Virus record (IMG/VR): IMGVR_UViG_3300042691_027241
Location: 11,563 to 75,562 of that record
Length of the DNA stretch: 64,000 nucleotides
Direction: 5' to 3' (one strand)
Source: a virus
Shown: positions 24,401 through 48,974 of the stretch, piece by piece
Layout of the letters: each line of letters starts with the position of its first letter
How positions within the stretch are numbered: position 1 is the first letter of the stretch
Translations under genes and position numbers: made by a program
Notes under the pieces: generated by a model
The model's database searches: none
The model's input: the letters and a program-made list of their open reading frames with translations, nothing else
Told to the model about the DNA's origin: nothing

Positions 24401-27400
24401 GGGAATAAATTTTTATGATATTGACAACCAACCAATAGCCGAAGATTTGCAATTGTTTAGTAACGGGCTAATAGGATTTAGAGATAGACAATATTTCAAC
24501 AACTTGGGTATAGACAACGCTACACAAAGTAAATTTTATCAAGGGTTGATTAAACAAAAAGGAACAATAAATTCTATCAATGCCCTTAAAGGAGCAAACT
24601 TTAATAATTTAGAAGCCAAAGTTAACTTTTACGAAAATTGGGCTGTGAGAATTGGCGAGTATGGGGCCACTGATGTTAACAAATTTATAGAGATTGAATT
24701 AAATGAATCTGCATTTAGTAGTAACCCTACATCTTTACAATTTGTCGACGATACAGTTGTACAGGAACCAGATGTTGTTACTTTTAATAAAAGTGACGTT
24801 TTTAAATCTGCAGGCGAATATGTTGCAAAACTCTTTGCTGCAGAGACCAATGATCAACCAAAAATTTACAAACCTTTACCAGTTGCGGGATTTGTAAATC
24901 TTGACGATATCGACGCCACTATTTTTGACTTAAATGATTATGAAACACTAACAACTATTGTTAACAATATTGGCACAGGTTACAAAATTTGGGTAGCAAG
25001 AGACTTTACAAAAAACTGGAATGTTTACCGATCCAGTTTAATCGAGGGTTCGTTATTTGCCCTAAGATATATTGTAGACGATATTGTTGAAGTTTATTTT
25101 GATAGAGATCATGGATTGTCAGAAGATGCTCTAATTGTTATCAAAAATTTTGATTCAAGATACGACGGAGTTTATCGAGTTGAAAATATAGTAGACTCCA
25201 ATAGATTTACTATCACAATGTATCAAAATTTGCAGAAGATAAAAGATGAACAAGCAGTTGCTGGTTCGGGAGTGTTATTTCAGCTTACTTCAACAAAGAT
25301 AAACGTAGCAAGTGATGTAGAATCTGTTCGGCCGGTTCAAGGGTGGGTAGAGAATGATAAAATTTGGGTTAACAATTTAGACAATCAACAAAACTGGGGA
25401 GTTTACAACAAGACCAGCCCTTGGAAATATATCAGCAAAGTTGAATTAGATCCAAGTAAGATGTCCGGAAATGATAATTTTGGGCAAGCAGTAAGTCTTG
25501 ATCCGAGTACAGGCAGACTTTTATATGCTGGCGCACCAAATTCGGGTACGGGTCGAGCTGCAATTTTTGTGCGATCAGGAAACAACTCGTGGGTACCAAG
25601 TTCTTTTTTCTGGGGAAATAGCACAGGATTAGATAGTTATGGTAAGGTAGTTGCCAATGGCAATGGATACTTTGCAGTAGCGGCCCCAGATAGTCAGTCT
25701 GGGACCGGGTACGTGTACATGTACAACGATGGGGTCTTAATACAGATTATCACCGATGATATGGGTGTTGCCAATGACTATTTTGGTAGTGCTATCGCAA
25801 TGAGTCATGACGGGCGTTACATGTACATTGGTTCTCCGGGTGCTGATAAAGTTCTATGTTACGCAGTTGTAACAAGAACAGAGGAAGCACAAAGTATAGT
25901 AGGTACAGGCTCGGCTACAACTTATACTTTAACGTCTTCTTTAGACAAACCAAGCGATTTAGTTGTGTTTGCAACATTAAGATCGGCTGAATATATTCCT
26001 ACTGTGGACTATACACTAACTCAAGCATCAAATGGTATTATATCATTTAATCAGACCGGAAACGGTGCAGTAGGTGGCGGAACACTCACTTACAATAACT
26101 TAGCTGCCACTGGAGGCACTGGTTCCGGTGCTACATTCACTGTAATTAATAGTAATTCAGGTGCCTATTCGGTCTCAAGAATCAATGGAGGATCAGGATA
26201 TAGCAATGGCGATACTCTTACTATTCTTGGTAGTAGTCTTGGCGGCACTGCCCCGGCCAATAATCTTACATTGACTGTGTCGAGTAAAGGAACTATCGAT
26301 AATATCAGTTTTGTTGCTGCCCCAGTAAATTTTGAACGCATTGATTTAATTAGAAGATCAAAGTTTTATAAATTGATAGGCACTATATCAGGACCAACTG
26401 CAGGCGCTAATTTTGGAACATCTGTTGTGACCAACAAGGACGGTTCTGTAATAGTAATAGGTTCAAATTTAGACACAAACTTTAATATTGATAATAATGG
26501 TAAAGTAAATGTCTATCAAAGAACAATTACTGAATTTACAACTGATGGTGTATCAGGAACGTTTAATACTCCTCTTCCGGTAGCTGATGTTTTCAGAGTT
26601 ACATTTAACGGTACTGAATTAGTGAATGGAACCGATTATTATTTGGTTGGAAGTAGTGCGATACAGTTTCCTCCTTTTGCTACTCCTGTTATAGGACAAA
26701 AATTAGTAGTTGAAACTAATAATTTTTTACCAACCCAAGATTTGTATCCTTCACTAAGTGGTGTAATTGGACAAAAATTTGGTAGTGCATTGGCAGTATG
26801 TAATACAGGTTGTAATGTTTATGTAGCAAGTCCGTATTACGCAGAATCACATTACAGTGAAGGACTGGTTACTCGTTTTGTTAATAATGGCAGAGTATAC
26901 GGAGAAGTAACAGGCACAGTCGAAAATCCTACAGTGATACCAGGAGATACTTTTGTTATCAATGATAGAACTCTGACAGTAAACGGAACAACTTTAGCAA
27001 GTGTGATATCATTGATAAATGCAGCCAGCATTCCAGGAGTTCAGGCAGAAAATTTTGATAATAAGTTAAAAATTACAAGTGATAGTGCAGTTGCTAACAA
27101 TAAACTTGATATCAAAATGGGCATAGGATCCGTTATATACGATTTAGGAATAGAAATTTATTCTGTTGCTCAGACAATAAAACATCCAAATTTAAACGGA
27201 GAAAGATTTGGTACAGCACTGGCACTTTCACAAGCCTCTGGAATGTTGGCTGTAACAAGCGATGGTGCCGATATTTCTGTACCAACAACCTTTGATACTT
27301 CATTTACTTTAACAACTTTTGATAGCAATAGCACAACATTTGTTGCTTTGGCTCAAGATTCTGGTGCCGTCTATATATATGATTTAATGGAAAATCCTTT

Positions 27401-30400
27401 TGAATCGCAACAAAATCCAGCAATTTTTGCATATACTCAAAAACTTGTAGGTCCAGATTTAGATACAGGATTCAATTTTGGTGCAAGTACAAGTATATTC
27501 AACGGTACACTTGTAGCCGGTGTAACCAATGACTACAATATTGTACCAGGTGGAGGAAGTATCTATGCTTACTATAATGAAAATAACACAGGCGGCTGGG
27601 ATTTAATAAGATACAAAGACAAACAAGTTGATCCGGCAACTATAAATTCGGCTTTCATATACAACAATAAGCAACAACAAATCATTTCTTTCTTTGATAT
27701 TTACGATCCTGCAAAAGGAAAATTGTTAGGCGTTGTGGATCAAGAATTAGACTACAAAGAAGAATATGACCCGGCTGCTTATAATGTTGTACAAGGTTCT
27801 GATCAAATTCAAAATTCTACTTTTTATTGGTCATCTCGGCACGTTGGTAAAACATGGTTTGACACCAGCAAGGCCAGTTTTATTGAATACGAACAAGGAT
27901 CTTTACAATACCGAGAAAAAAATTGGGGATCTCTCTTCCCTGGAAGCCAGGTAAAAATATATGAATGGGTTGAGAGTAATTTTCTTCCAAGTCAATATGC
28001 AAATTCTGGCCAAGATGGAGTTCCAAAATATCCAGATAATTCGGCTTATACAAGTGTAACTATTGTTGACCCATCAACTGGAATAATATCACAAAAGTAT
28101 TATTATTGGGTAGGAAATAAAACTTCTGTTGATGTATTGAAATCTAAAAGATCTTTAAGTATTCAATCATTGGAAAAATACATTAGCAATCCAAAAGACC
28201 AGAATATACCTTACATTGCTGCGTTATCACAAAATAGTGTGGCTCTATACAATATTGCAAATAATTTATCAGCCAATGACGTAGTTTTACACATTGATAC
28301 TGCTACTTCAAGAAATAAGAATATTATTCATAACGAGTATCAATTGATACAGCAAGGTAACCCTGACCAAACAATACCTGCCCGTGTGCTTAAAAAAATG
28401 AAGGATAGTTTTGTAGGCTTTGATGACTCGGGTAAAATCGTTCCAGATCCTAATCTTCCTCCTGAAAATAGTATCGGTCTTTTAATCAGACCAAGACAAG
28501 GAATTTTTGTTAATAGATTAGCAGCTTTGAAAAATTTTGTTTTACAATTAAACACAATATTCAAAAAGAACCCAACTCTGCTAATTTCGAACCCATCTAC
28601 AATGTATTCCGAGGACCCTCTTCCTGCCACATACGACTCTGAAGTAGGCTCCTTTACTGAAATTGAATATTTGGATGTTGACGCATTTGCTGATGGGTAC
28701 ACTATTTTAATTAGAAATGATTCTCGTTATAATGGAAGATGGACACTTTATGAGTTCAATGGTCAGACCAAGAAATTTGAACTGCTGTTGATTCAAAGTT
28801 ATAAGACACCAATTTGGTGGAGTAAAATAGATTGGTACAGCGAAGAATACGAAACCGGTAAAGAAATAAAATACGTAGTTGACACCTATGGTCAGATTTT
28901 GTCGCTAAATTTAATACCAGATGATTATGTAAAAATTTTAGATGATGGAATAGGCAATTGGTTAATATTCAGAGTCGAAAATGATCTAAGTTTAACTTTA
29001 CTTGCCGCTCAAAATGCCTCTATAGAGATTAAAGATACTATATATGAATTAAAATACGGTGCAGGCTTTGATTCAACTGTGTTTGACATTGTAGATTTTG
29101 ACCCAGCAGCAGCTAAAGAAGTTGGTCAAATTTTTGAGAGTGTGTACAAAGAAATTTTAATCAACAGTTTAGCAATTGATTTTAACAATTTATTTTTTGC
29201 AATAGTTAACTTTATCATAGCCGAACAAAAAAACCCAGACTGGATTTTTAAAAGTAGTTTCATTGATGTTTATCACAGTCTACGAAATTTAGAACAATTG
29301 CCTAATTATATTAAAGATAATCAAAGTTTTTATGAAGATTATATTAAAGAAATCAAACCATATAGAACAATAATAAAAGAATTTGTTCCACAATACAGTA
29401 AAACTGATGAGGCAACAGGTAATTGGGCAGATTTTGATTTACCAGCAAGATATTTCTCGACAGAGGCAATCTACAGATCCCCGGACGTCATTAACTCAAC
29501 CGATGCTTACTTATTCGAAGACGTTCCGGTTTATTCAACCTATGCCGAAAACTACAAATTTAAAATATCAGGCTATCTATTAGGAAATGTTGGCCAGAAT
29601 TATATTCTACCTCCTAATGTCGAAATAGTCGGCGGCGGAGGCACAGGTGCCGCTGCTATTACAACTATAAATTCCACTACCGGCAAATTAACAGGAATTT
29701 ATGTAACCAATCCCGGATCTGGTTACACCAGTACTCCCAGTGTTTTTATAAACGGTGTAGGCGAAGGCGCTACAGCATATCCATTACTTAAAAACGAATA
29801 TGATAGGGAAGGTAGTTACAATACTGTGCGTGGTATCACAACAAACTTAAAATTTGATAGAATTACTTACTCAAGTAATATAGCTGAATGGCAACCTAAT
29901 ACAGCATATCAGCCCACAATCGTTGTAGATGGCAACAAAGCTAATGCATGGAATTTAAATAGATTGCGTTATGCAGAGGCTACAGTTATAACTTCTCAAG
30001 ACAATGATGTTACTGAAGTGTTCTTCAAGAGTGACGGTACTGCTATGTATGTGGTTGGAAATTCCACTGATAGAATTTATCAATATGCTCTTGGGATACC
30101 GTGGGATGTAACAACAGCTTCAAATATTGGAGCAGCCAATTTAGCTCCACAAGACACAAATGTACAAGGATTGTACATCAAAGATGATGGCACAAAAATG
30201 TTCACAGTTGGAACGAGTACTGATTCAATTTATCAGTACCGCTTGGCTACAGCATGGATGGTGAATACTGCTTCGGTTATATCTTCTGTAGATATTAGTT
30301 CTGAAGAATCAAGTGCTCGAGCCATTGAGTTTAGTCAAGACGGATTCAATTTGTATATATTAGGTACATTAAATGATACGGTGTATCAATATGAATTGAC

Positions 30401-32594
30401 CATACCATGGGAAATAACAAGTGCAAATTACTCTGGAAAATCATTGGTCGTACTTCCAAAAGATAATTTTCCAACCGCACTCAGATTCAAAACAGACGGT
30501 TCAAAATTATATGTAGTTGGCCAGCAAAATGATAAAATCAATGAATATACATTAACCACCAATTGGGACGTTTCAACTGCCGTATTTACTAACAGTTTTG
30601 ACCTTGAAACAAACACCCCTACAGGCATGTTTGTAAGTTATGATGGCACAAAAATTTATGTGTCAGATTCGGGCACAGACGAAATTAGACAGTACAATTT
30701 TAATTCTGATGGTATTATTCCTATTGACTCAAATGTCTATATTGCCAGTGGCAATCTCATTTATTACAACAATGAAGCATACCTTGCAACTAATGCTAAT
30801 ATTAGTTCACAATCAACCTTTGATTTTACAAGATACAACAAAGTAGATAGTGGAAATGTATTATTGAATGCGGCTGATAGAATATCCGCGTACTATTTTC
30901 CGGAAGTTGGAAGACCAGGTAAAGACTTGGAACAGTTGATGTTTGGTGCAGGATTTCCGGGCAATAAAATTCAAGGAAAAACATTTGATGCCAATAGCTT
31001 TACTTTAACAAGTAATATAATTGGATTCAATTATACTGGAATGAAAATTACCAGTGCAAACATTCAGGCAGTTGATTTTCTTGACAGCGGTTTTGAATTA
31101 AACGATACTATTCGTATAAAGGGACAATATAGTTTTGATTTTAAGAATGATGCTGATTTTAAAGTAATCAGCGTTGATCATACTGAAATGATGTTGTCTG
31201 GACCACCAATTGAAACTATCTATACTATCACTTTAAGTTCAAATATAACTAACGTCCAGGCTGGTGATTATATAACTCAGGCTAATACCTCCGCTAATGC
31301 ATATATTTTACATGACTATGCTGATGCCAATGTGATTCAAATAATACACAGTGTTACAGGATTTACAGTTTCTGCTAATACAATTAGAATCAATGGAGTA
31401 AGTAATGCTGCCGGTATATCTGAAATTATTACTGGCGGCACAGCCAATGTAAAAATTACCAATCTAACAATTGACAACCTATTAGATTCTAATATTGCAA
31501 GTTTTTACAAAGATACCGCACTTGGTACAAGACCTGAAGATATCAATATTGTTGGTGGAAGTTACGTTGATGGGTATCACAGTCATGCACCTGAAGAATT
31601 GATTCCTGGAAGAATTTATGATGCGTTAGAAATAAAAACATTCACTAATAATAGTTCAAACACCGCTACTTATGGATTCAGAGAATTCAAACCAATGCGG
31701 GGCAATATTGAGTTTTATAGAATTAGTGCCAATTCCACCACTTATCTAAGTGCCAATTTAAACATTGCCGATGTTGATATTTTTGTAAGTAATGCAGCTA
31801 TTTTACCTGATCCCGGGACAGCAGCAGGAATACCAGGAGAAATTTTCATTAACGGCGAACTTATTCATTACTATCAAAAGTATGATAGCGTCAAAATATC
31901 TGCGGCCACGTCGTGGACAGCAAATACTTTTTATAATACTGACACATTAATTGCTTACAATAGCAATACATATTTGGTATTGGGCAATGTTTACGCCAAC
32001 GCTACATCATATATCAGTAACAGTAGCGTGAGACAAGTTTTTGTAAATACTTTGTCGCAGTTGCGTAGGGGGGTTGACGGCACAGGAGTAGCCACGCAAC
32101 ACCTTACCAATTCTAAAGTTGTTGATACAAGTTTGGTTCAGGTATTGCCCGATGTTGGTCCTAAGCTTGCTACAGTTACTGGAAATTATAATACTACAGC
32201 TAACGTAACTTGGAGAATAACATTAGGTAGTCCAATTACAGCAAATATTGGCAATTACCTTGTACAATCTGGAAATACAGCAAATGTAAGACTGCTTGGT
32301 AACGTAATTTCTTCAAACACAGTAGCAGTCCATTTTGTGGTTGGTAACTTAACCATTGGGTCTGATGTGCTTACTATTTTTAATCAGCTTAATAATACTT
32401 ACATTGGCACAGTAGCTAACGTTACAGCCATGGAAATTTTAGGAAAAGTAGATGCAAATGGTAATGTAGCTTTGGTAAATGAAACAATAACCCAGAGTAA
32501 TTTATGGATCCCGCTTAATACCGGAGTGGGATTAGAAGGCAGCACCGCACTTGCAGCTGAGTTTATAAGAGAGGAACCTAGTTATATACCATGA
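18402..32594 (+). CDS. Giant 4730-aa virion protein (putative gp7-like wedge fused to beta-propeller and repeat domains)
   Basis: Follows gp6; N-terminal FLPEIFQ wedge-like start; FG-GAP-type repeats, GSGY.S.P.V repeats, a second repeat propeller and a C-terminal LRRGVDGT motif. Confidence 0.7.
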   Translation: MAVIKTHQFLPEIFQTETNKKFLNATLDQLVNEPALKKINGYIGRKLAPSYKVNDSYILENNKERQNYQLEPSLIIKNNVTSEIEFATTYIDIINKLKYHGSLTDNHNRLFDNEYYTYDPKIDLDKFVNFSQYYWLPNGPDPVTVTANGVKLQQSFTVTYDSVQGIYKFSEYGETPNPTLTLARGGTYDFVINEPGNEFFIQSRPGANGLDPNFLNLTTRQVLGVSNNGADVGTIRFTVPASSAQSQWTSMPLVDTVDYATTLGFHQLLGANPEELITNFGGIDGPVRYLDNASVVFTNVEYIDDTFWNDSSRVDNGVVYFDDPKLIPFSQRNSIFTIKIERDQNNVERIVLFPKLPVANEHKVKIKGGQTYAGREFYSRLNLLTLVPYVTAPQDFLFYQSGENNDASGLINLVAPTTSTIDPQTDIVGRTDYKSPNGVTFTNGLKVRFDSSALEQWQNKNYYVEGVGSAINLVPEDELVSIESINSSTVLEAGQGYVIGDRLNFTGGTGTANATVVIKDIVLDTATATATINSTTGVVNNITIVNGGSGYLSAPAVTIDSAPTGNPSAFAHAVISNGVVTNIIIDSAGLNYASPPTVTIAPPTSGPIKDFFIKDRGNYSVLPQNPIKLEGGLGTEALLNAYLQPVLADYITIKRSSIDRNPWSRANRWFHMDVIEKTAEYNGVNAIYNQTSRASRPIIEFNESLQLFNFGAEAKRPVDILDTTIQNAFTQVQGVICIDEKILTIGNLTLTHGDRVIFSNDINNDVRNKIYNFTIEATTEFPPAVTYKAYIQETEDTNISERNTVLVLSGDNGGKQWYYNGNSWTASQTKTQYSQEPLFDIINDNGISFGDNLNYSGTTFNGTKIFSYKKGTGSADPVIGFPLSYKNFVSQGDIQFDNNFDFETFTYLLNNGAVETIKINSGYLQKNLNAETNQRQNIWTINRDFSKQYQNYQFTYDGETNLFPIDNPPDTSVINPNIKITVNNQILSIGNFAITKVVDQYAVLVNPDIIKKDDIIFVSIFNKNFVSPNAYYEVPLNLDINGLNSNLTTLTLGQLRNHLITLKNNSLNVQGRVPGDSNLRDIQYINQGGSVLQHSAPVVYAGLFLNHPTMNFVDAIKLANREYTKFKIKFIELAGNLELDRNDIPGSVDQIMLTINAVKNDSFPWFYSDMLPYGPNERVIIPTYTVLDPDIKTYEINNIFVDTVISNKAVLVYLTRTINSVEQKTLLIKDRDYSLRQDRPAVEIKESFGLLYGDKIDIVEYNNTDGCYVPETPTKMGMYPKYYPEIYSDDTYRQPIDVIQGHDGSIMPAFGDFRDQLILELERRIYNNIKVNYDTNIFNLYDYLPGKFRVTDYSLGEFNQILSQGFLSWIGTNRIDYTTNSFFQASDPFTWNYKKFIDAVNGETSPGTWRSIFKYFYDTDRPHTHPWEMLGFSEKPSYWEDRYGPAPYTGGNSILWSDLSLGYIHAGPRIGFDLRYQRPNLSFIIPVDENGNLKSPTEIGGYNPVTGQKFGLIADFDSTKANTSYAVGDVGPVELAWRRSSEFPYAIQLALALSKPAKYFSLMANTQNYIRNPITGQFEITATGQHITPTALLVQGYDNNGIIERNSGYLNWIRDYVKNLGIGDAASQIKENLTELDVQLAYKMAGYTDKRFIELLAEQSSPSSINDSVVVPEENYRIELYKGSPVNKITYSAVIVEKSPNGYTVSGFDLTNPYFFIIPSQVNNNAYSITSGKERGIVYKDFKNAKYTVPYGFEFNSKQQVVDFLVSYQRYLLAQGFIFIDRDNDLKEQKDWILSAKEFLHWSSQGWKTGNIIVLSPVSTQLKVFDESSVVDEIKNTPYSSRVLDINFKPIIKNNFTVYRSSNTFTFQSNANQTIGFAELNLVQFEHLLILDNITVFNDILYVPELGNRQYRLKLVGAKTSNWNGSLELPGFIYSSDKVDEWVSGQDYLKGSIVKYKFRFYTAIQNVTASDQFQTNFWKLIASSELKSGIINNLATNAQQGINFYDIDNQPIAEDLQLFSNGLIGFRDRQYFNNLGIDNATQSKFYQGLIKQKGTINSINALKGANFNNLEAKVNFYENWAVRIGEYGATDVNKFIEIELNESAFSSNPTSLQFVDDTVVQEPDVVTFNKSDVFKSAGEYVAKLFAAETNDQPKIYKPLPVAGFVNLDDIDATIFDLNDYETLTTIVNNIGTGYKIWVARDFTKNWNVYRSSLIEGSLFALRYIVDDIVEVYFDRDHGLSEDALIVIKNFDSRYDGVYRVENIVDSNRFTITMYQNLQKIKDEQAVAGSGVLFQLTSTKINVASDVESVRPVQGWVENDKIWVNNLDNQQNWGVYNKTSPWKYISKVELDPSKMSGNDNFGQAVSLDPSTGRLLYAGAPNSGTGRAAIFVRSGNNSWVPSSFFWGNSTGLDSYGKVVANGNGYFAVAAPDSQSGTGYVYMYNDGVLIQIITDDMGVANDYFGSAIAMSHDGRYMYIGSPGADKVLCYAVVTRTEEAQSIVGTGSATTYTLTSSLDKPSDLVVFATLRSAEYIPTVDYTLTQASNGIISFNQTGNGAVGGGTLTYNNLAATGGTGSGATFTVINSNSGAYSVSRINGGSGYSNGDTLTILGSSLGGTAPANNLTLTVSSKGTIDNISFVAAPVNFERIDLIRRSKFYKLIGTISGPTAGANFGTSVVTNKDGSVIVIGSNLDTNFNIDNNGKVNVYQRTITEFTTDGVSGTFNTPLPVADVFRVTFNGTELVNGTDYYLVGSSAIQFPPFATPVIGQKLVVETNNFLPTQDLYPSLSGVIGQKFGSALAVCNTGCNVYVASPYYAESHYSEGLVTRFVNNGRVYGEVTGTVENPTVIPGDTFVINDRTLTVNGTTLASVISLINAASIPGVQAENFDNKLKITSDSAVANNKLDIKMGIGSVIYDLGIEIYSVAQTIKHPNLNGERFGTALALSQASGMLAVTSDGADISVPTTFDTSFTLTTFDSNSTTFVALAQDSGAVYIYDLMENPFESQQNPAIFAYTQKLVGPDLDTGFNFGASTSIFNGTLVAGVTNDYNIVPGGGSIYAYYNENNTGGWDLIRYKDKQVDPATINSAFIYNNKQQQIISFFDIYDPAKGKLLGVVDQELDYKEEYDPAAYNVVQGSDQIQNSTFYWSSRHVGKTWFDTSKASFIEYEQGSLQYREKNWGSLFPGSQVKIYEWVESNFLPSQYANSGQDGVPKYPDNSAYTSVTIVDPSTGIISQKYYYWVGNKTSVDVLKSKRSLSIQSLEKYISNPKDQNIPYIAALSQNSVALYNIANNLSANDVVLHIDTATSRNKNIIHNEYQLIQQGNPDQTIPARVLKKMKDSFVGFDDSGKIVPDPNLPPENSIGLLIRPRQGIFVNRLAALKNFVLQLNTIFKKNPTLLISNPSTMYSEDPLPATYDSEVGSFTEIEYLDVDAFADGYTILIRNDSRYNGRWTLYEFNGQTKKFELLLIQSYKTPIWWSKIDWYSEEYETGKEIKYVVDTYGQILSLNLIPDDYVKILDDGIGNWLIFRVENDLSLTLLAAQNASIEIKDTIYELKYGAGFDSTVFDIVDFDPAAAKEVGQIFESVYKEILINSLAIDFNNLFFAIVNFIIAEQKNPDWIFKSSFIDVYHSLRNLEQLPNYIKDNQSFYEDYIKEIKPYRTIIKEFVPQYSKTDEATGNWADFDLPARYFSTEAIYRSPDVINSTDAYLFEDVPVYSTYAENYKFKISGYLLGNVGQNYILPPNVEIVGGGGTGAAAITTINSTTGKLTGIYVTNPGSGYTSTPSVFINGVGEGATAYPLLKNEYDREGSYNTVRGITTNLKFDRITYSSNIAEWQPNTAYQPTIVVDGNKANAWNLNRLRYAEATVITSQDNDVTEVFFKSDGTAMYVVGNSTDRIYQYALGIPWDVTTASNIGAANLAPQDTNVQGLYIKDDGTKMFTVGTSTDSIYQYRLATAWMVNTASVISSVDISSEESSARAIEFSQDGFNLYILGTLNDTVYQYELTIPWEITSANYSGKSLVVLPKDNFPTALRFKTDGSKLYVVGQQNDKINEYTLTTNWDVSTAVFTNSFDLETNTPTGMFVSYDGTKIYVSDSGTDEIRQYNFNSDGIIPIDSNVYIASGNLIYYNNEAYLATNANISSQSTFDFTRYNKVDSGNVLLNAADRISAYYFPEVGRPGKDLEQLMFGAGFPGNKIQGKTFDANSFTLTSNIIGFNYTGMKITSANIQAVDFLDSGFELNDTIRIKGQYSFDFKNDADFKVISVDHTEMMLSGPPIETIYTITLSSNITNVQAGDYITQANTSANAYILHDYADANVIQIIHSVTGFTVSANTIRINGVSNAAGISEIITGGTANVKITNLTIDNLLDSNIASFYKDTALGTRPEDINIVGGSYVDGYHSHAPEELIPGRIYDALEIKTFTNNSSNTATYGFREFKPMRGNIEFYRISANSTTYLSANLNIADVDIFVSNAAILPDPGTAAGIPGEIFINGELIHYYQKYDSVKISAATSWTANTFYNTDTLIAYNSNTYLVLGNVYANATSYISNSSVRQVFVNTLSQLRRGVDGTGVATQHLTNSKVVDTSLVQVLPDVGPKLATVTGNYNTTANVTWRITLGSPITANIGNYLVQSGNTANVRLLGNVISSNTVAVHFVVGNLTIGSDVLTIFNQLNNTYIGTVANVTAMEILGKVDANGNVALVNETITQSNLWIPLNTGVGLEGSTALAAEFIREEPSYIP

Positions 32595-34408: not shown

Positions 34409-37400
34409 ATGGCAGAGAGACAACCAATTGTAAATGTATTTGGAATTTCTGGTCCAAGCGGAAACCCAGTACAGAGCCCAGCAGTTCTATATCCAAGAAC
34501 GGATCCAAACTGGAATAAATTCTTAAATCAATATGCTGTATGGCCAACCACATCGGGTAATTTTGAAAAATATACCATTTACAGGATTTTTGATGCGCCT
34601 TATACCGGAGAGTATTTTGTAAACTCAAGTGCAGATAACATTGCTACTGTTTATATCAACGATCTTAAAGTTGGCGGAACTACTCACACAATAGAATATC
34701 ACCATTGGTGGTGGTGGGGAGGTTGGTGGGGTTACTATCATCCTTGGTATTACAATAATTATTCAGAATACGGAATCTATGGACCTTATGGTTGGGGTTG
34801 GGGTTGGTATTACCCGTGGTATGGTTATAACGGATACTGGGGATATTGGGGACATATCACTACCAATTTTTCAACACTTCCTGTTCCTACTAAAATTACT
34901 TTAGCCAAAGGTATCAATCAAATCAGAATAGAAGCCGCTCAAGCACGTGGATCTGCTGGCTTTGCAATGAATATCACTGACTTGGAAAGCAATGTGGTAT
35001 GGGATACCAGAAGCACAGCAGTGGTGTCAGAGTATACTCAAACTTGTGGTAGATATAGGTTAACCTCTCCTATAAATGCAGATATAGTTGCTTACCTGTG
35101 GGGAGGTGGTGGTGGCGGTGGTGGTAATGACGCAGGAAGCCTTGGCGGACTCGGTGCCCCAGGACAATTTCATAAGACAAGATTCAGTGTTGAAGTTGGT
35201 GATGTAATTGAGGTAGTAGTCGGCGACGGCGGAACCGGTGGCGGCAGTAGTGCAGGAAGTGCCGCCGGAGGAAGAGGAGGCGCCAGTAGATTAAACTTGG
35301 AAGGATTTCCAAGTTTTAGCGGAGCAGATGGACATCCTGCAGGCCCAAGAGGGTCATCAGGTGGTGGCGGTGGCGGTGGCGGAGCGTCTCTTGTAATCGT
35401 TAACGGAAAAGTAGTAGCTGTAGCCGGTGGCGGTGGTGGCGGCGGCGGAGCAGGAAATGATGGAAATAATGCAACTTTATACAGTATACGAAACGCTACA
35501 ACAGCATATCCTGATATCGCACAAATTTATTCAGGTGCATCGGCGGTAGAAGCATCTGATATAGATAATCCGCTACATCCAAGCTACAACACAACAGCAG
35601 GACAACGTGGCCAGGGTGTTGTAAATGACGGGGGCGGCGGAGGTGGCGGTGGCGGTGGTTGGGGTGGCGGTGCTGGCGGAACTGTACGAGGTGGCGATTC
35701 AAGCACGTATGGAGGTCAGTCCGGGGGTAACTATCCATTTAACCAATTGTTCAAACATACTGCCGGAAATGTAAGTTTTATAGCACCAAGCGGTGTTAAT
35801 TCAATAACATTAGTGTCAGCCACTGGTGGCGGTGGTGGCGGTGGTAGCGGAAATCTAACACAAGGTGGTGCCGGTGGCGGTCAAGGTGCGGTTGTATCAA
35901 ATAGAACATATTCTGTAGTGCCCGGAAGACTGTATGAAGTATGCATTGGTCAAGGTGGTCAAGGAGGTGTAACACAGTTGACTCCGTACACTACAGGAAC
36001 AATTACAGATGCAAACTTAACATTAACACCTGCTGTTTCTGGCGGATTTACCTCTATTAGAGATACTGTAACAAATACATTTTTATTAAAATTAGAAGGC
36101 GGAGCAGCAGGAAATGTAACACATGCTGGCTCAGGAGGAACAGTAACTACAGCAGCCGGATCAGGTGGATCAACTAATTCAGGCGCCGCAGGTGTTACTC
36201 CGACAACAAACAACACAACAGGAACAGCCGGCGGCGGACCTGGTGCCGGCCAGTCATTGGGTCAAAATGCAATTGCACAAACCGATAAAGGATCAAATTT
36301 AGGTTGTGGTAGTGGTGGCGCCGGAGCAGCAAAGCCCTCAATTTTTGCTGCTAACCCAAGTGATCAGACCAGACCACAACAACTGCAATCTTCAATAGGA
36401 GGAGCTGGCACGGCCGGTGCAGTTTTAATAAGGTGGAGACAGGATCAAAGAGTCGGTTCTGATGGTGAGCTATCGCCAGTGAATAACGCTAATTGGAGCC
36501 AATTCCTAAATGATTATGGAATGTGGTTTACCAATGCAGGGCAAGGCGCAGGAACAGTTACACGACAATTTGAAACAGTATATTCTGGAGAATATAAACT
36601 AAGAGCAGCTACTACAGGCACTATGGATGTGTTTATAGACGATGTTTTAATTACAACAGTTACACAAAACAGTAATAGTACTCCTACTGCTATTAGTTTA
36701 AATTTCGGAAAAGGCGTAAGACAACTTAAATTTAATTTATACAATTCGCCAGTTAACAAAGGTTTTGCTGTTAGTATAAGCGATTCAGCAGACAAAGTTT
36801 ACTGGGATACTCGCGACAATGTTGGTACTGATCCACCAGGTAGTAATTTAAGGTATTACGTTGCTCCTTTTGCCAAGGGAGGAAAACAGAGTGCTGAAGG
36901 AGCCAACGGCTCCGTGGCACTTGAGATGTATCCAACTGGTTTATCCACAATTAAAGTCAATGGTAACTGGCGATCAGTTAGTGACGCAGCAGTTAAAGTG
37001 TCAGGAGACTGGAGATATGTTGATGAAATGTTTGTAAAAATTAACGGACAATGGAGAACAACCAATTCAGCTGGTAACTTGACTACTTTAAGATTTCAAC
37101 AACAATTTGGCAACTACGGAAAATTACAAAGAACCGGGTTACCTCCCGGACCTGGTGGTACTGGCCGCGGGTGTAAAATCATATGTCAGAAGTTGGCAGA
37201 ATTAGGGTATTTTGATTCAGCAATGAACAAAGCTGATCAGGCTTTTGGTGTCATGCTTCGCGATAACGACCCAGATGCGTATAATGGATATTTACGTTGG
37301 GCCGGTCCAGTTGTTGATCTATTAGAAGGTGGCGGAAGCCCAACATTTAGAAAAATAGTTTTTCCATGGATTAGAGACGAACAAAAACGTAAAGATTTAC

Positions 37401-37696
37401 AAACAAAAATTGTTGCACATTATTTAGATGTTATAGCCCGTCCATGGGCCGAAGAAATGGCTTTCAGAATGAAGGCCGATGGTTATACTAAATCAAATCC
37501 GGCTGGTAAATTTGTTATGGATATAGGATTACCTCTTTGCAGAACAATTTCAAAATTTGGAAAAGGTAAGCAACTGCCTATGTGGGCCAAAACTGCACTA
37601 ATTTGGGGAACCACTACTGGGTTATTACTTACAGTAACTGGTATATCTACTGCTGATAAAATTGTTAGGAAAATTGGAAAACTCTTAGGAAAATAA
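34409..37696 (+). CDS. Glycine-rich fibre/receptor-binding-like protein with a duplicated beta-sandwich domain, a W/Y/G insert and a C-terminal CKIIC domain
   Basis: Poly-Gly tracts; two homologous NW..FLN.Y..W...WDTR domains; VKVSGDWR/VKINGQWR fibre motif; hydrophobic C-terminal helix. Confidence 0.65.
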   Translation: MAERQPIVNVFGISGPSGNPVQSPAVLYPRTDPNWNKFLNQYAVWPTTSGNFEKYTIYRIFDAPYTGEYFVNSSADNIATVYINDLKVGGTTHTIEYHHWWWWGGWWGYYHPWYYNNYSEYGIYGPYGWGWGWYYPWYGYNGYWGYWGHITTNFSTLPVPTKITLAKGINQIRIEAAQARGSAGFAMNITDLESNVVWDTRSTAVVSEYTQTCGRYRLTSPINADIVAYLWGGGGGGGGNDAGSLGGLGAPGQFHKTRFSVEVGDVIEVVVGDGGTGGGSSAGSAAGGRGGASRLNLEGFPSFSGADGHPAGPRGSSGGGGGGGGASLVIVNGKVVAVAGGGGGGGGAGNDGNNATLYSIRNATTAYPDIAQIYSGASAVEASDIDNPLHPSYNTTAGQRGQGVVNDGGGGGGGGGGWGGGAGGTVRGGDSSTYGGQSGGNYPFNQLFKHTAGNVSFIAPSGVNSITLVSATGGGGGGGSGNLTQGGAGGGQGAVVSNRTYSVVPGRLYEVCIGQGGQGGVTQLTPYTTGTITDANLTLTPAVSGGFTSIRDTVTNTFLLKLEGGAAGNVTHAGSGGTVTTAAGSGGSTNSGAAGVTPTTNNTTGTAGGGPGAGQSLGQNAIAQTDKGSNLGCGSGGAGAAKPSIFAANPSDQTRPQQLQSSIGGAGTAGAVLIRWRQDQRVGSDGELSPVNNANWSQFLNDYGMWFTNAGQGAGTVTRQFETVYSGEYKLRAATTGTMDVFIDDVLITTVTQNSNSTPTAISLNFGKGVRQLKFNLYNSPVNKGFAVSISDSADKVYWDTRDNVGTDPPGSNLRYYVAPFAKGGKQSAEGANGSVALEMYPTGLSTIKVNGNWRSVSDAAVKVSGDWRYVDEMFVKINGQWRTTNSAGNLTTLRFQQQFGNYGKLQRTGLPPGPGGTGRGCKIICQKLAELGYFDSAMNKADQAFGVMLRDNDPDAYNGYLRWAGPVVDLLEGGGSPTFRKIVFPWIRDEQKRKDLQTKIVAHYLDVIARPWAEEMAFRMKADGYTKSNPAGKFVMDIGLPLCRTISKFGKGKQLPMWAKTALIWGTTTGLLLTVTGISTADKIVRKIGKLLGK

Positions 37697-37698
37697 AA

Positions 37699-38103
37699 AT
37701 GGGAATCAGTTTAGAAGAATATTTAAGGAACAGAGAATCGTGTGAGGTTTGCGATGCTAACGGTGATACCGATCATTGTAAAACAACTATGTTGAGCAGG
37801 ACTGATAATTGTTTAATTTATAACAGTATCCTTCTAAATGACGATCCTCACGACGATAATGATGTGCTTTTGTTACAAAATTTAAGATCAGAGTCACGAG
37901 AAGAGAAGATAATCGAGTACTACATTAGATCTGAAAAATTAGTTAAACACGCTAAATTTGTTTATGATCGATCTTTTTGGGTAGCAAATTACAACAATTT
38001 TGTAAAAAGTATAGTTATATCATTAAAAAACAATGATAAAGCAGCAGCAATTGAGGGTATCTTTACAATGCTCGAAACATTAGAACAAGAATTTCGCTTA
38101 TAA
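37699..38103 (+). CDS. Hypothetical protein resembling a stand-alone CFI-box-CTERM-type domain
   Basis: NCLI...DD.DVLLLQNLR...IIEYY...LV...NNDKAAAI pattern; N-terminal CEVC. Confidence 0.5.
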   Translation: MGISLEEYLRNRESCEVCDANGDTDHCKTTMLSRTDNCLIYNSILLNDDPHDDNDVLLLQNLRSESREEKIIEYYIRSEKLVKHAKFVYDRSFWVANYNNFVKSIVISLKNNDKAAAIEGIFTMLETLEQEFRL

Positions 38104-43979: not shown

Positions 43980-45008
43980 GTGTATAGACATGCCGAAATA
44001 GTGCATTGGATGCACAATAAAGAAACTCACGCAATCATACCGCAGCAGGTAGATATTGATCTGACTAATATTTGCAATCAAGATTGTTTCTATTGTAATT
44101 CCGCAGAACATAGAAAATTAGCACCTGTACAAAAACATTATACAGAATATATTCGATTACTTGATAAACTTGCTGCCTGGCGTGAGCATAGTCCACAGAG
44201 TTTTGGTAGCTTACATACTATTACCTACCCTGGTGGCGGCGAACCTACATTATTGCCCGGCTATGAAAATGTTATTGAACATACTATCAACTTAGGTTTC
44301 CTGACAAGTCTGACTACAAACGGTACGCAACTGGAACCACTAATAGAAAATGTTTCTGTAGATAAGTTACGTCAAATGGCATGGATTGGGATAGACATCG
44401 ACGCCGGCACTGAGGATCTATACGAAAAGATTCGACGCAGCATACCCAAGCGATCGCCATTTAGTAAAGTAATGCGTAATGCACAAGAATTAGTTCGCTT
44501 AGGTGTGAATGTGGATTTTAAAGTTTTATTAAATGAATATAACAATAATAAAAAAGCTATTGAAGATATTTTTAAACAATGTAAAGACGTTGGTGTTAGA
44601 TTACTTTACTTTAGACCTGCAATTATTAATAATCAGGCATATCCATGGGGCGAGGCAGAATGGAGCATGATAAATGAACTTTCTGCACAATACAAAGTAG
44701 AGTCTAAGTTTAATAAAACTAAAACAGAAACTAGGAACTACTCGCGATGTCACCAAATGTTTCAATTTCCGGTATTTTGTGCTGACGGTTACATTTATAC
44801 ATGCTGCGACAACAAAGGTAATCCCAACTTTGCCCTAGGTCGATGGGATGAGATGGATTTTAGAGATATATGGCTTAACGATCGTCATTACAACATTTAT
44901 GATAAAACAAATACTCATTTATGTCCGCCCTGCCGACCAAACAAACATAATATTGAAATTCAAAAAATTATTGACCAAAATAGTTTAATGGAAAATTTAT
45001 ACACATGA
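43980..45008 (+). CDS. Radical SAM protein with a C-terminal SPASM/twitch domain
   Basis: CNQDCFYC, GGGEP, TTNG; C-terminal C...ADGYIYTCC...LG...CPPC; GTG start. Confidence 0.88.
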   Translation: MYRHAEIVHWMHNKETHAIIPQQVDIDLTNICNQDCFYCNSAEHRKLAPVQKHYTEYIRLLDKLAAWREHSPQSFGSLHTITYPGGGEPTLLPGYENVIEHTINLGFLTSLTTNGTQLEPLIENVSVDKLRQMAWIGIDIDAGTEDLYEKIRRSIPKRSPFSKVMRNAQELVRLGVNVDFKVLLNEYNNNKKAIEDIFKQCKDVGVRLLYFRPAIINNQAYPWGEAEWSMINELSAQYKVESKFNKTKTETRNYSRCHQMFQFPVFCADGYIYTCCDNKGNPNFALGRWDEMDFRDIWLNDRHYNIYDKTNTHLCPPCRPNKHNIEIQKIIDQNSLMENLYT

Positions 45009-45361
45009 CTTTCTTTCCTGTAGTTGAATTAGTTGATCGTTATTCGATAGCTTGTTTAAAGTATGATAAAACTCATGCTAATCAAGAAGAAGTAGAATTT
45101 TATAAAAGCCAATTGAGCAATTACGATATTAGCTCTATAAACAGCGAGATTACAGAGTTATATAATATACATAGCCAAATATGGGATTTAGAATCTCAGT
45201 TAAAATCTGGAAAAGAACACGAACTACCACTAGACGAACTTGGACGCCGAGCAATCGCAATTAGAAATCTAAACAATAAAAGAATTAAGTTAAAAAACAT
45301 CGCAGCAGAAAAACTAGGATGTGTAGTAAGAGAAATTAAGAAGGACCATTTAAGTGAATAA
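45005..45361 (+). CDS. Small helical protein (DUF6165/DUF4254-like)
   Basis: VELVDRYSI..LK...IWDLE...AIRNLNNKRIKLKN pattern, as recalled for families found near glycosyltransferase genes. Confidence 0.55.
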   Translation: MTFFPVVELVDRYSIACLKYDKTHANQEEVEFYKSQLSNYDISSINSEITELYNIHSQIWDLESQLKSGKEHELPLDELGRRAIAIRNLNNKRIKLKNIAAEKLGCVVREIKKDHLSE

Positions 45362-46295
45362 GTTTACTATTATCCCTGCTGATATGTTTATTTGGAATAA
45401 AATTGAATTGTTACAATTTTTAATTAGCAATCAAAATAATCATATTTCTATTGACACAAATGAAGAAGGCTGTTGTGCCTATTCAATAGGTTTATATAAA
45501 TTATTAGATTTATTTGAATTTAAGTCAGTTACAATCAATACAAATAATATTTTAGAACATCACAAAAAATATAATATAACCGGTAGCAAATTTTTCAAAT
45601 TTTTTAACATAGGCAATAATAGTTACAAGGAATATCATGCTTGGAATGGAAATGCAGTATTCGGAGCATTTTATAATAGACCAATCTGGCACCGTCTTGG
45701 TTTAGCTGCCGAATTGTACGAACATAAAACTTTATTAAACTTTAGGGCCAATCCGCACAATGAAGATAATCGTGCTCTTTTTGAATTACAAAAACTATTT
45801 GAAGTGAGTCCAGAGTCTGCTAAAAAGTTGTTAAACCTTGCAAATAATTTTCCTAAACAGTTAGAAAGTTCAGATGGGTATACAGTAGGGGCTACGACAC
45901 AACAACACACCGATCAACTGTGCCAGTTTTACCCTAATATTTTTATTGATATAGTGGCAGAAACATTTGTCAACGGCCGTACTTTTTTTGTAACAGAAAA
46001 AACAGTTCGTCCTATGTTACTTAAAAAACCATTTATTATAATGGGTTCAAAAAATTTCATGATATATTTAAGGCAAATGGGATTTAAAACTTTTTACGAA
46101 TACTGGGATGAGGATTATGATGGCTTTGAAGGAAAAAACAGATATTTAAAAATACTAGATATAATTGACATGCTGGCCAAAAAAACACCAAATGAACTAG
46201 AAGAAATGTACAAATCAATGCAGAATATATTAGATCATAATTATAATTTGTTGGTCAATCAAATTTATAGTAAAAATATAACGCATGTCAATTAA
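45354..46295 (+). CDS. 'TEK' family protein, putative GT10-like glycosyltransferase
   Basis: IVAET...FVTEKTVRPM..KKPF..G...LRQMGFKTF..YWDEDYD C-terminal motif shared with three paralogues. Confidence 0.5.
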   Translation: MNKFTIIPADMFIWNKIELLQFLISNQNNHISIDTNEEGCCAYSIGLYKLLDLFEFKSVTINTNNILEHHKKYNITGSKFFKFFNIGNNSYKEYHAWNGNAVFGAFYNRPIWHRLGLAAELYEHKTLLNFRANPHNEDNRALFELQKLFEVSPESAKKLLNLANNFPKQLESSDGYTVGATTQQHTDQLCQFYPNIFIDIVAETFVNGRTFFVTEKTVRPMLLKKPFIIMGSKNFMIYLRQMGFKTFYEYWDEDYDGFEGKNRYLKILDIIDMLAKKTPNELEEMYKSMQNILDHNYNLLVNQIYSKNITHVN

Positions 46296-47142
46296 ACCAA
46301 CGCTGCCTTTTGTTGAAACAATGATTACACAGGCCTGCAATATCAGCTGTTTGGGCTGTACTAATTATAGCGATCTCAAGCATAACGGATATGTAAGTTG
46401 GAGGGAAGGAAAAAAACAAATTGAGGCTTGGTTAGATAGAATCAATATTCCAGATTTTGGAATAATGGGAGGAGAACCATTAATCAACCCTGAAGTAAAA
46501 GAATGGATCAAAGGTTGCAGAGAACTTTTACCAAATGCCCAAATTAGATTTACTACGAACGGCATACTGTTATCAAAACATTTTGATATAATAGACTTAA
46601 TGGCTGACATAGGAAACTGCGTATTTAAAATCACAGTACATACCGAGAGTGCAATTGTTCAAGAACTGATTGATAAAATTTTATCAAAATATACATGGAG
46701 TCCAGTAGTCGAACACGGAATTAATAGGTTTAAAACAGACAATAATTTAAGATTTCAAATTAGTCGTCCAGTTAGATTCGTTAAGACGTACCAAAACTCT
46801 TACAACAATATGCTTCCTTACAATAACGATCCTGTTAGTGCTTTTGATAATTGTTGTCAACAAACTTGCCCTCTTCTTTATAATGGCAACATATATAAAT
46901 GTAGTACATCAGGTTTACTTAAAGGAGTTTTAGAGAGGTTCAATTACCCAAATAAAGATTCTTGGGATCCTTATATCACAAACGGAATTTCTCCGGACTG
47001 CGATAATATTGAGTTACAGAAATTTATTGACAATTTTGGAAAACCACACTCGTTATTATGTGGACAATGTCCGACAGCTAACGATAGTAACATTGTTCAT
47101 TTAGAAAATGTTTATACAAAAAATGCACAGTTTAATTTCTGA
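46285..47142 (+). CDS. Radical SAM protein
   Basis: CNISCLGC, GGEP, TTNG; extra C-terminal Cys (CCQQTC, YKC, CGQC). Confidence 0.88.
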   Translation: MSIKPTLPFVETMITQACNISCLGCTNYSDLKHNGYVSWREGKKQIEAWLDRINIPDFGIMGGEPLINPEVKEWIKGCRELLPNAQIRFTTNGILLSKHFDIIDLMADIGNCVFKITVHTESAIVQELIDKILSKYTWSPVVEHGINRFKTDNNLRFQISRPVRFVKTYQNSYNNMLPYNNDPVSAFDNCCQQTCPLLYNGNIYKCSTSGLLKGVLERFNYPNKDSWDPYITNGISPDCDNIELQKFIDNFGKPHSLLCGQCPTANDSNIVHLENVYTKNAQFNF

Positions 47143-48163
47143 AGATACAAAAATTCATAACGAATATAAATTGGTAATTTATCTTTACCAATGCTTTGTT
47201 GAAGATAAAGATATCGTTATTGATTTTCATTTGGAAGGACCGTGTTGCTCTCGGAATAATTTATATAATATACTGGATGAATTTTGCAATGCTACAAAAT
47301 TTAATAAATCACGCATTAAAATTTATACAGGAAACGCCCTAGAACGTCACAGCGAATATGAAATAATTTTTAAACCTGAATATTGGTACGAGATCAAATT
47401 AATAAATGATTGGCTTAAAAACAATAGGTTAAACATTGATACAAAACCTCTAAAACATTTTGGTATTTTTATTGGACGATCATCCTGGTCTAGACTTTGG
47501 GCTTCGACTATACTTTATCGATATAAAGATAAAACATTACAAACTTTTCATAGTGGGTACGATCAGAACTATGTTGTTTCCAAATCTAATAATACTACAG
47601 ATTTTTTAGAACTTGACGAACTAAATAGATTTCGTTGTGATATTATTCCAGAAGTTACTCAATTTTTAAATCATTGTCCAATTAATCAAATAAATGATCT
47701 TGATGTAATTAAAAATACAAAAATGTTTATTGCAGCAAACAATAATTATTGTTTTCCTATTCAACACCCTGCTAATTTAAATATTCTAAAATGGTATAAC
47801 GATATTTGCATTGATGTAATTTGTGAAACCAGAACCGTTGGCAACGTATTTTTTGTAACTGAAAAAACATGGCGTTGCATAATAGCCAAGAAACCGTTTA
47901 TAATAGTAGGAGCCCCTCATTTTTTAAACAATCTAAAAAAATTAGGATTTAAAACATTTAATGATTATTGGAATGAAGGGTATGACGAATATCCACCTAG
48001 TCATCGAATAAAAGAAATAGAAAAACTTATAAACACACTGGCAAAAAAACCAATAATAGAAATGCATAATCTTTTAACACAAATGCAACCAACATTAGAA
48101 CACAATTATCAAACGTTTGTGTCTTTGACTTACAACAAAATACAGGAAATCTTCAATGAATAG
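47108..48163 (+). CDS. 'TEK' family protein, putative GT10-like glycosyltransferase
   Basis: VICET...FVTEKTWRCI..KKPF..G...LKKLGFKTF..YWNEGYD. Confidence 0.5.
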   Translation: MFIQKMHSLISEDTKIHNEYKLVIYLYQCFVEDKDIVIDFHLEGPCCSRNNLYNILDEFCNATKFNKSRIKIYTGNALERHSEYEIIFKPEYWYEIKLINDWLKNNRLNIDTKPLKHFGIFIGRSSWSRLWASTILYRYKDKTLQTFHSGYDQNYVVSKSNNTTDFLELDELNRFRCDIIPEVTQFLNHCPINQINDLDVIKNTKMFIAANNNYCFPIQHPANLNILKWYNDICIDVICETRTVGNVFFVTEKTWRCIIAKKPFIIVGAPHFLNNLKKLGFKTFNDYWNEGYDEYPPSHRIKEIEKLINTLAKKPIIEMHNLLTQMQPTLEHNYQTFVSLTYNKIQEIFNE

Positions 48164-48974
48164 ATTTTTTGCATTTGGTTGCAGTTTTACTAAATCTAAT
48201 AGAGATTCAACTTGGGCAGACATTCTTGGCGCTCAATTTGATTATTATGAAAATTGGGGACAACCAGGTGCAGGAAATAGTTTTATATTTTATAGTCTAA
48301 TAGAATGTTGTAAACGCAACAAAATTAACAAAGATGATACAGTTGCAATTATGTGGACTAGCATTGGAAGAGAAGATAGATTTATACAAGGGAAAGGATG
48401 GATCACCCCGGGCAGTATTTATAATCAGAATGTTTATCCAATTGACTTTGTAAAACAATTTGCAGATCCTACAGGATATTTACTTAGAGATTTGGTACAT
48501 CTATCTGCGGCGAGAAAAATTCTACAAGAGATTGGTTGTAAATATTATTTTTTTAGTGTTGTGCCTTTGAAAATTTTTGATGACAATACGCATAACTATT
48601 TTGACATTGAAACTAGTATAATTGAGCTGTATAAGGATGATTTGTTTGAGGTAAAACCTAGTGTATATGAGGTCGTATTCAACAATAATTGGTACAGCCG
48701 TCCGGGAAAAGTTGATATTGATTTAGTTAAGAATGAATATATAAATCTTAGAGGCAACGAATGGCCCTCGTGGGAAAAATTTGTACTAAGAGAATTTGAC
48801 GGCGTTTCTAAAACAATATTAAAAGAGATCGATGAAAAGTATAATTTGTCAAACAAACTTTTAATTAGATCAGATACGCACCCTACTGCCAATGAAAGTC
48901 ATGAATATCTATTAAAAGTTTACGGTAAGTTAGAAAAAAAATTTAGTAAATCACGTGAGGTCATCAGATTCTAA
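48156..48974 (+). CDS. SGNH/GDSL-like hydrolase or acyltransferase
   Basis: FGCSFT block I, PGAGN block II, DTHPT block V. Confidence 0.6.
   Translation: MNRFFAFGCSFTKSNRDSTWADILGAQFDYYENWGQPGAGNSFIFYSLIECCKRNKINKDDTVAIMWTSIGREDRFIQGKGWITPGSIYNQNVYPIDFVKQFADPTGYLLRDLVHLSAARKILQEIGCKYYFFSVVPLKIFDDNTHNYFDIETSIIELYKDDLFEVKPSVYEVVFNNNWYSRPGKVDIDLVKNEYINLRGNEWPSWEKFVLREFDGVSKTILKEIDEKYNLSNKLLIRSDTHPTANESHEYLLKVYGKLEKKFSKSREVIRF

Follow-up and report, generated by a model that had tools for sequence, protein, structure and literature searches.

A conserved tryptophan-, tyrosine- and glycine-rich loop with a hypervariable middle in the PA14-like domain of a lake phage fibre protein

The DNA analysed here (hereafter the window) is a 64-kb stretch comprising bases 11563-75562 of a 75.5-kb virus contig in IMG/VR (record IMGVR_UViG_3300042691_027241). 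CheckV estimates the contig to be 22% complete, which corresponds to a genome of roughly 340 kb, and the source phage is an uncultured T4-like lake phage. A 1095-amino acid (aa) open reading frame (ORF) on the plus strand (34409..37696) encodes a glycine-rich, fibre-like virion protein; aa 98-149 of this protein (34700-34855, plus strand, in frame) form a loop of 52 residues that contains 13 Trp, 14 Tyr, 12 Gly and 4 His. The loop is a clade-specific, selected family trait: conserved aromatic and glycine-rich flanks enclose a hypervariable middle, and the whole interrupts a lectin-type domain. To the reading that the flanks make a conserved aromatic stem and the middle a hypervariable tip, used for contact with a host glycan or with the envelope or membrane interface, we give about an even chance.

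Anatomy and conservation of the loop

The segment had been singled out in an earlier reading of the window's letters alone (hereafter the original prediction), and its translation and residue counts proved correct. Tryptophan is the rarest residue. In the window's other structural proteins its background frequency was 1.06%, at which the probability of finding at least 13 Trp in 52 residues is about 9e-15. The original prediction had also described the segment as a discrete insertion into one of two duplicated domains, and this was borne out. BLASTP of the host domain (34508-35011) against the second copy in the same protein (36491-36814) returned two collinear high-scoring segment pairs, aa 1-60 aligned to aa 1-59 (E 2e-9) and aa 117-168 aligned to aa 57-108 (E 2e-8); copy 1 is thus longer by about 56 residues, all at one point, and copy 2 is without the segment. 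No ORF of at least 60 aa was found in any other reading frame across 34700-34855, and no RNA family in Rfam was matched anywhere in the 64-kb window.

Read support had been proposed as a check against an assembly artefact. In three studies (runs X1, X3 and X5, of which X1 is possibly the source sample), Logan contigs crossed the loop ungapped and with no more than two mismatches, and these contigs together with the 18 independent loop versions described below ruled an artefact out. The runs holding the sequence were all lake or freshwater metagenomes, bar some labelled 'fungus metagenome'.

A search of 5.8 billion proteins recovered 17 full-length orthologues, 50-75% identical over the N-terminal region, with a W/Y/G loop at the same place in 17 of 17; no full-length orthologue was without it. 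When loci from IMG/VR and metagenomes were added, 18 distinct loop versions of 28-64 aa were obtained, and all 18 kept the WWWW motif. The homologue alignment, suggested earlier as a check on loop variability, divided the loop into three parts. In the N-terminal flank (HHWWWWGGWWG, aa 98-108, 34700..34732, plus strand), W100-W103 and G105 were invariant among the 17 orthologues and mean pairwise identity was 0.81. The C-terminal flank (aa 136-149, 34814..34855, plus strand, of the WYGYNGYWGYWGH or WYGYGGYWGYWGH type) had an identity of 0.72 and carried Gly at every third residue; G139, Y140, G142, W144 and G148 were invariant and G145 was more than 90% conserved. The consensus of the outgoing flank is HHWWWWGGW[W/Y]G and that of the returning flank W[Y/N]GY[G/N]GYWG[Y/W][W/G]G[H/Y]. 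Between the flanks, the middle (aa 109-135, 34733..34813, plus strand) was the most variable stretch of the protein (identity 0.10), ranging over the orthologues from 3 to about 40 residues, the shortest having only 3-4.

Short tandem repeats were present in the loop DNA, including the middle (by Tandem Repeats Finder, GGTTGG x3 at 34790-34807 and, in the C-terminal flank, GGATACTGG x2.3), which fits growth and shrinkage of the middle by slippage. Tryptophan has one codon. The Gly, Tyr and His codons of the flanks differed synonymously between orthologues while the residues were unchanged, which shows that the protein is under purifying selection and that the loop is no artefact of assembly or slippage.

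Across the 18 versions the loop was made almost only of W, Y, G, H, N and P, with 8-13 Trp (25-35%) and 4-17 Tyr; charged residues were few and aliphatic ones practically absent. Summed Wimley-White interfacial free energies lay between -17.5 and -33 kcal/mol. Gly content was 12/52 (23%) in the window's loop and 7-12 of 28-29 residues (up to 41%) in the short loops. Gly-Gly co-occurrence over the 18 loops gave z 7.2 at lag 3 and again at lag 6, and z -3.0 at lag 2, scores that are inflated by the kinship of the sequences; in the window's own loop, the lag-3 periodicity gave z 3.0.

The Trp run (34706-34732) is encoded as (TGG)4 GGA GGT (TGG)2, one frame off the (GGT)n glycine tracts that are abundant in the fibre gene (35105-35125). 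Off-frame translation of the glycine tracts of relatives likewise yields W runs, and by its codons the loop may have originated from such an off-frame tract. Diversification of the kind driven by diversity-generating retroelements was considered and rejected: the 64-kb window held no template-like repeat of the loop DNA (best other match 16 bases), the contig's first 11.5 kb lying outside this check.

The loop is narrowly distributed. When 1.84 billion cluster representatives were searched exhaustively with phmmer, the PA14-like host domain turned up in 57 clusters, with the loop only in the orthologue cluster; the other 56 contained no Trp run longer than 2 and no 20-residue window with more than 7 W+Y. 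Among IMG/VR viral contigs, a DNA pattern for WWWWGGW[W/Y/C]G was matched only by the five known orthologue contigs. In JGI metagenomes the same pattern had 35 matches, of which 2 were further orthologues and 33 fell in simple (TGG)n repeats or in tracts read off-frame within short frames. When the 'phages' collection, from which near records may be excluded, was searched at the nucleotide and protein levels, nothing was returned for the loop region, and only the C-terminal domain had a match, in one cyanophage. A word search of the 5.8 billion proteins with the loop alone gave 4 candidates, none significant, which is a weak negative as low-complexity words may be skipped; a search of the ESM Atlas with the loop gave no usable match, and a literature search found nothing relevant on Trp-rich phage fibre loops.

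Fold of the host domain

The domain that carries the loop was modelled with AlphaFold2 (AF2) over aa 1-235, using 31 aligned sequences. The model was a confident beta-sandwich, with predicted local distance difference test (pLDDT) values of 84-93 at aa 30-95 and 155-200. The two parts of this sandwich that lie on either side of the loop, a first half at 34508..34699 (pLDDT 84-92) and a second half at 34856..35011 (pLDDT 86-93), both on the plus strand, correspond to the first and second BLASTP segment pairs with copy 2. Copy 2 itself (36491..36814, plus strand) was not interrupted by a loop. In a full-length AF2 model, which was poor (mean pLDDT 43) and allowed no domain packing to be read, the strand pattern was nevertheless seen twice, along with an all-helical C-terminal domain. 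Structure prediction, another of the checks proposed with the original prediction, thus gave a confident fold for the host domain and left the loop unstructured.

Comparison of the domain model with 48,161 PDB chains by VIA-align gave as best match the N-terminal domain of the phage Chi tail-tip protein (PDB 8vjh chain B; Z 11.0, 115 residues aligned, root-mean-square deviation (rmsd) 2.6). Like the loop protein this is a tail-end protein, but it comes from a siphophage, shares 16% sequence identity and shows no sign of a Trp-rich insertion. The next matches were the PA14-type lectin POL of Pleurotus (Z 9.3) and the rhamnose-binding module of a rhamnosidase (Z 9.3); Cea1A (Z 7.4) and bacterial PA14 adhesin domains (Z 7.0 and 6.8) followed. 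In BFVD, most matches were to T4-like cyanophage virion proteins annotated as 'PA14 domain-containing' (E about 3e-5, rmsd about 2.1, range 2.1-2.7).

By its model the domain shares its beta-sandwich fold with the cyanophage PA14 virion proteins (P-RSM1 M4QHN2, S-SM2 E3SIR3; BFVD E about 3e-5) and with PA14 lectins and adhesins such as POL, MpPA14 and Flo5/Epa1 (PDB Z 6.8-9.3), and in the cyanophages, too, it sits in large virion proteins. The window copies differ from these systems in missing the Pfam PA14 model, and the aromatic loop occurs in 0 of the 56 other clusters with the domain. Against Pfam PA14 (PF07691, gathering cut-off 24 bits) neither window copy matched even at E<=10; 5 of 10 relatives scored 13-23 bits, below threshold, and matches to GLEYA were likewise sub-threshold. 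Foldseek against the PDB gave no match at E<=0.001, and a PDB sequence search with the family profile gave chance glucokinase matches only. No Ca2+ site of the DcisD type seen in PA14 lectins was identified in the domain; two of its residues, D76 and N77, are nearly invariant. By the fold of its model the host domain is PA14-like, and we claim no Pfam membership for it.

Proposed function of the loop

From the observed anatomy, conservation, host-domain fold and distribution of the loop we infer a binding role and a stem-and-tip geometry. Three lines lead to this reading: the composition of the loop, its lectin-type scaffold, and its place in what looks like a host-recognition gene. Across related loci the flanking genes are 48-97% identical and the 1095-aa fibre gene only 34-57%, making it the most divergent gene of the fibre block; a divergent fibre gene amid conserved flanks is the usual pattern for host-recognition genes. 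Trp, Tyr and Gly are the prevailing residues in binding hot spots, in the complementarity-determining regions (CDRs) of antibodies, in membrane-interface segments and in the aromatic strips of carbohydrate-binding modules. In the mechanism we propose, the loop would grow from the PA14-like sandwich near the N-terminus of the glycine-rich fibre protein, its two conserved aromatic and glycine flanks acting as a stem; the middle would expand and contract, probably via slippage of short GGN/TGG/TAY repeats, to give a variable tip. The loop would then most likely offer a large pi-rich contact surface that strengthens or retunes binding of the fibre to a component of the host envelope, through stacking against the sugars of a glycan or through partitioning at the outer-membrane interface.

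Several observations weigh on the other side. The loop lies in the N-terminal domain, adjoining the first 30 residues of the protein (34409..34498, plus strand), which are its most conserved part (mean pairwise identity 0.89 over the 17 orthologues, many invariant columns, AF2 pLDDT <50) and are probably an attachment peptide at the baseplate-proximal end. The C-terminus, by comparison, is least conserved (0.57), and the protein may thus have its main receptor-binding end away from the loop. Flanks that never vary are to be expected of contact with a fixed partner more than of a receptor site under diversification, and AF2 drew the loop as coil (pLDDT 34-40 in the domain model, 21-26 in the full-length one), so that its geometry is not given by the models. 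The original prediction had spoken of an aromatic adhesive or glycan-stacking tip. A role in adhesion or glycan stacking fits the PA14-like fold and the pattern of conserved stem and variable middle; the position at a 'tip' of the protein is unsupported, as the loop stands next to the most conserved 30 residues. A more specific version of the contact-surface reading, which we put forward tentatively as possible rather than probable, is a self-contained W/Y/G 'aromatic brush', in which a Gly-X-X stem, possibly similar to a polyproline II (PPII) helix, presents an array of indole and phenol groups while a slippage-driven tip retunes adsorption, in the manner of a CDR set on a lectin fold.

The main rival is that the loop is an assembly element that fastens the fibre and makes no host contact: its aromatic flanks would fold only in the oligomer, as an aromatic zipper or as a Gly-X-X hairpin of polyproline II type, packed on the symmetry-related subunits or on a different protein of the baseplate or fibres. 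PPII helices have three residues per turn (bioRxiv 10.1101/2023.11.25.568672), and the enrichment of Gly at lags 3 and 6 (z 7.2), with depletion at lag 2, is the repeat of PPII and polyglycine II (PGII) helices, although kinship of the sequences inflates these scores. WWWW and the three-apart glycines (G139, G142, G145, G148) are conserved, the loop lies near the conserved N-terminal peptide, and the host protein is itself glycine-rich. The low pLDDT of the monomer is compatible with folding on assembly, and structure predictors handle folds of the PPII/PGII type poorly (bioRxiv 10.1101/2023.11.25.568672). On the other hand, aromatic residues prefer beta-like over PPII geometry (bioRxiv 10.1101/2023.11.25.568672), and the loop's Gly content, 23% here and at most 41% in the short versions, is under the roughly 50% of known PGII sandwiches. 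Its length varies from 28 to 64 aa, and assembly proceeds with no such loop in relatives whose slot holds the same domain. We consider an assembly role unlikely, though well short of negligible. Less likely still, and in our judgement improbable, is that low-complexity sequence has expanded here and is tolerated: a TGG/GGN/TAY tract prone to slippage, and possibly descended from an off-frame (GGT)n tract, would do no harm and have no specific function. The short tandem repeats in the loop DNA, the hypervariable middle, the W runs obtained when Gly tracts are read off-frame, and the frequency of (TGG)n repeats as non-coding DNA in metagenomes would all suit such an origin. Neutrality is contradicted by WWWW, built from a single-codon residue, remaining invariant across orthologues 55-86% identical, by flank Gly, Tyr and His residues kept through synonymous codon change, and by the W/Y/G/H/N/P-restricted composition in 18 of 18 versions and the presence of the loop in every full-length orthologue.

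Downstream radical SAM genes

The strand of the fibre gene also carries, 9-23 kb downstream of it and tightly packed, seven radical S-adenosylmethionine (SAM)-like ORFs (43980-57986), at the positions given in the original prediction. Their presence had raised the idea that the loop is a core resembling those of ribosomally synthesised and post-translationally modified peptides (RiPPs), embedded in a virion protein. Under this explanation the loop would be a post-translational target, with Trp and Tyr cross-linked by a downstream radical SAM enzyme, or Tyr and Trp decorated by the downstream sugar-tailoring operon. Proximity and shared strand favour it, and the known substrates of radical SAM enzymes include full-size proteins besides peptides (QhpD, anSME).

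The identity of the enzymes argues against this. Five of them (48974-50356, 51175-52566, 52563-53882, 53846-55087 and 56676-57986, on the strand of the fibre gene) passed the NCBIfam model NF033640, N_Twi_rSAM, with 279-407 bits against a cut-off of 170. Peptide-maturase models reached only 18-43 bits on the downstream radical SAMs against cut-offs of 300-650, among them 43/450 for DynA, 27/650 for WgkB, 31/340 for PapB and 34/300 for SkfB. The ORF at 43980 has a C-terminal SPASM domain, and neither it nor the ORF at 46285 passed any NCBIfam model. Of 20 downstream ORFs scanned at E<=0.001, none had a Pfam domain of the PqqD or RiPP recognition element (RRE) type. The loop itself is enclosed within a folded domain and has no leader-core layout, and there is no small precursor gene. 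By Pfam, the SPASM/twitch domain is N-terminal in 3 of the 5 N_Twi_rSAM paralogues.

Nor did the enzymes covary with the loop when their co-occurrence, proposed as a check, was examined in related records, all of which are fragments. Copies of N_Twi_rSAM above cut-off numbered 6 and 5 in loop-bearing G002 and G003, and 5, 7 and 4 in G006, G007 and G008, which have no loop, so that each of these five related records, loop-bearing or not, keeps the five-gene set. Orthologues of the genes at 48974 and 51175 (78-88% identity) occurred in L013, L018 and L020, whose fibres lack the loop. The gene at 43980 was found in none of five loop-bearing records, again fragments. In one loop-bearing locus (L008, 18084-20416) the homologue of the gene at 43023 abuts that of 48974, and the roughly 5 kb with 43980 and 46285 is missing at the syntenic place. 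In the window, the stretch 43980-48974 holds the SPASM radical SAM at 43980, the radical SAM at 46285 and paralogous ORFs of no assigned function; it is an accessory insert in the tailoring operon. This distribution satisfies the genomic half only of the refuting condition set out with the original prediction, and on the records compared it is strong, not final, evidence against the loop as a substrate, these being fragments. Taken with the family assignments, it leaves the RiPP-like core without backing, and we regard modification of the loop by this operon as very improbable.

The fibre gene and its neighbourhood

The 1095-aa gene is flanked by fibre genes of 369 aa and 549 aa, both of which match tail-fibre PHROGs. 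Upstream lie genes for a late sigma factor, an SbcCD-like nuclease and the baseplate hub and wedge, as well as a 4730-aa ORF (18402-32594, plus strand) between a baseplate wedge gene and the fibre genes, which is present in all related loci at 48-89% identity. Between its two PA14-like copies the 1095-aa protein has a Gly_rich_2 domain (aa 451-676, 35759..36436, plus strand; Pfam PF21722, E 4e-11), scoring 43.8 bits against a gathering cut-off of 24.3; the same domain is precomputed for most of the orthologues. The protein ends in an all-helical domain (37184..37693, plus strand; helices at aa 926-1092) whose last helix is hydrophobic and which begins close to a conserved CKIIC motif. This domain is 53-57% identical to the C-termini of proteins of about 1780 aa encoded by further viral contigs (L005-L007) and to a hypothetical protein of Synechococcus phage SynMITS9220M01. 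From these matches it appears to be a mobile C-terminal module.

Directly 3' of the fibre gene is a gene for a 134-aa acidic protein with a CxxC...C cluster (37699..38103, plus strand) and no PHROG match. Homologues were found only in the four loop-bearing loci that reach that far (L004, L008, L009 and L010); none was present in nine loop-less loci or in three loci with the C-terminal domain only. The 134-aa protein may serve specifically in the assembly of long-form fibres.

In relatives (L013-L021), a variable cassette occupies the slot flanked by the 369-aa and 549-aa genes and encodes proteins of 470-1255 aa in which PA14-like and glycine-rich modules are reshuffled; the PA14-like domain is N-terminal only in some and near the C-terminus only in others. 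None of the short-form slot proteins of related phages had the aromatic loop. Two of them (L018 and L020) have a different, Gly/Pro-rich insertion ahead of the last strand of the PA14-like domain.

Comparison with described systems and significance

Among the closest described systems is gp38 of Salmonella phage S16, in which glycine-rich motifs (Gly 37/73) separated by hypervariable segments form a three-layer PGII sandwich at the distal tip (PMC6851490). Like gp38, the loop protein is a glycine-rich fibre protein in which conserved Gly elements with a three-residue periodicity bear hypervariable segments. It differs in that gp38 is more than 50% Gly at its distal tip, whereas here a single loop of 23-41% Gly stands in an N-terminal lectin-like domain, and two of every three of its positions are Trp or Tyr. 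Measured against glycine-rich PPII/PGII assemblies generally (S16 gp38 and the snow-flea antifreeze protein type), the loop has the Gly periodicity and falls short of the content of about half Gly.

Trp-rich sequences that act at membrane interfaces include indolicidin, the Trp domain of puroindolines, the membrane-proximal external region of HIV gp41 and the undecapeptide of cholesterol-dependent cytolysins; these are cationic or amphipathic and are not loops of lectin folds. They share with the loop a very high Trp density (25-35% in the loop) and a strong predicted interfacial partitioning, while the loop is uncharged and rich in Gly and Tyr. To RiPPs cross-linked by radical SAM enzymes (streptide, darobactin/dynobactin, WGK peptides and triceptides) the likeness consists of a Trp/Tyr-rich sequence and radical SAM/SPASM-twitch enzymes in one genome; the differences are that the enzymes here fall outside the maturase families and do not covary with the loop, and that leader, RRE and precursor gene are absent. 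For a selected WWWW motif together with 25-35% Trp over 28-64 residues in a virion protein, we found no described counterpart.

Inviting as it looked, the link between loop and neighbouring radical SAM operon is unsupported. If the loop is a binding element, it would show how far a two-letter aromatic/glycine code can reach in nature, would parallel the synthetic Tyr/Gly/Trp loops of antibodies, and might represent a compact, tunable adhesive module. For this group of phages, the loop segment of a single fibre gene is a likely site of change in adsorption.

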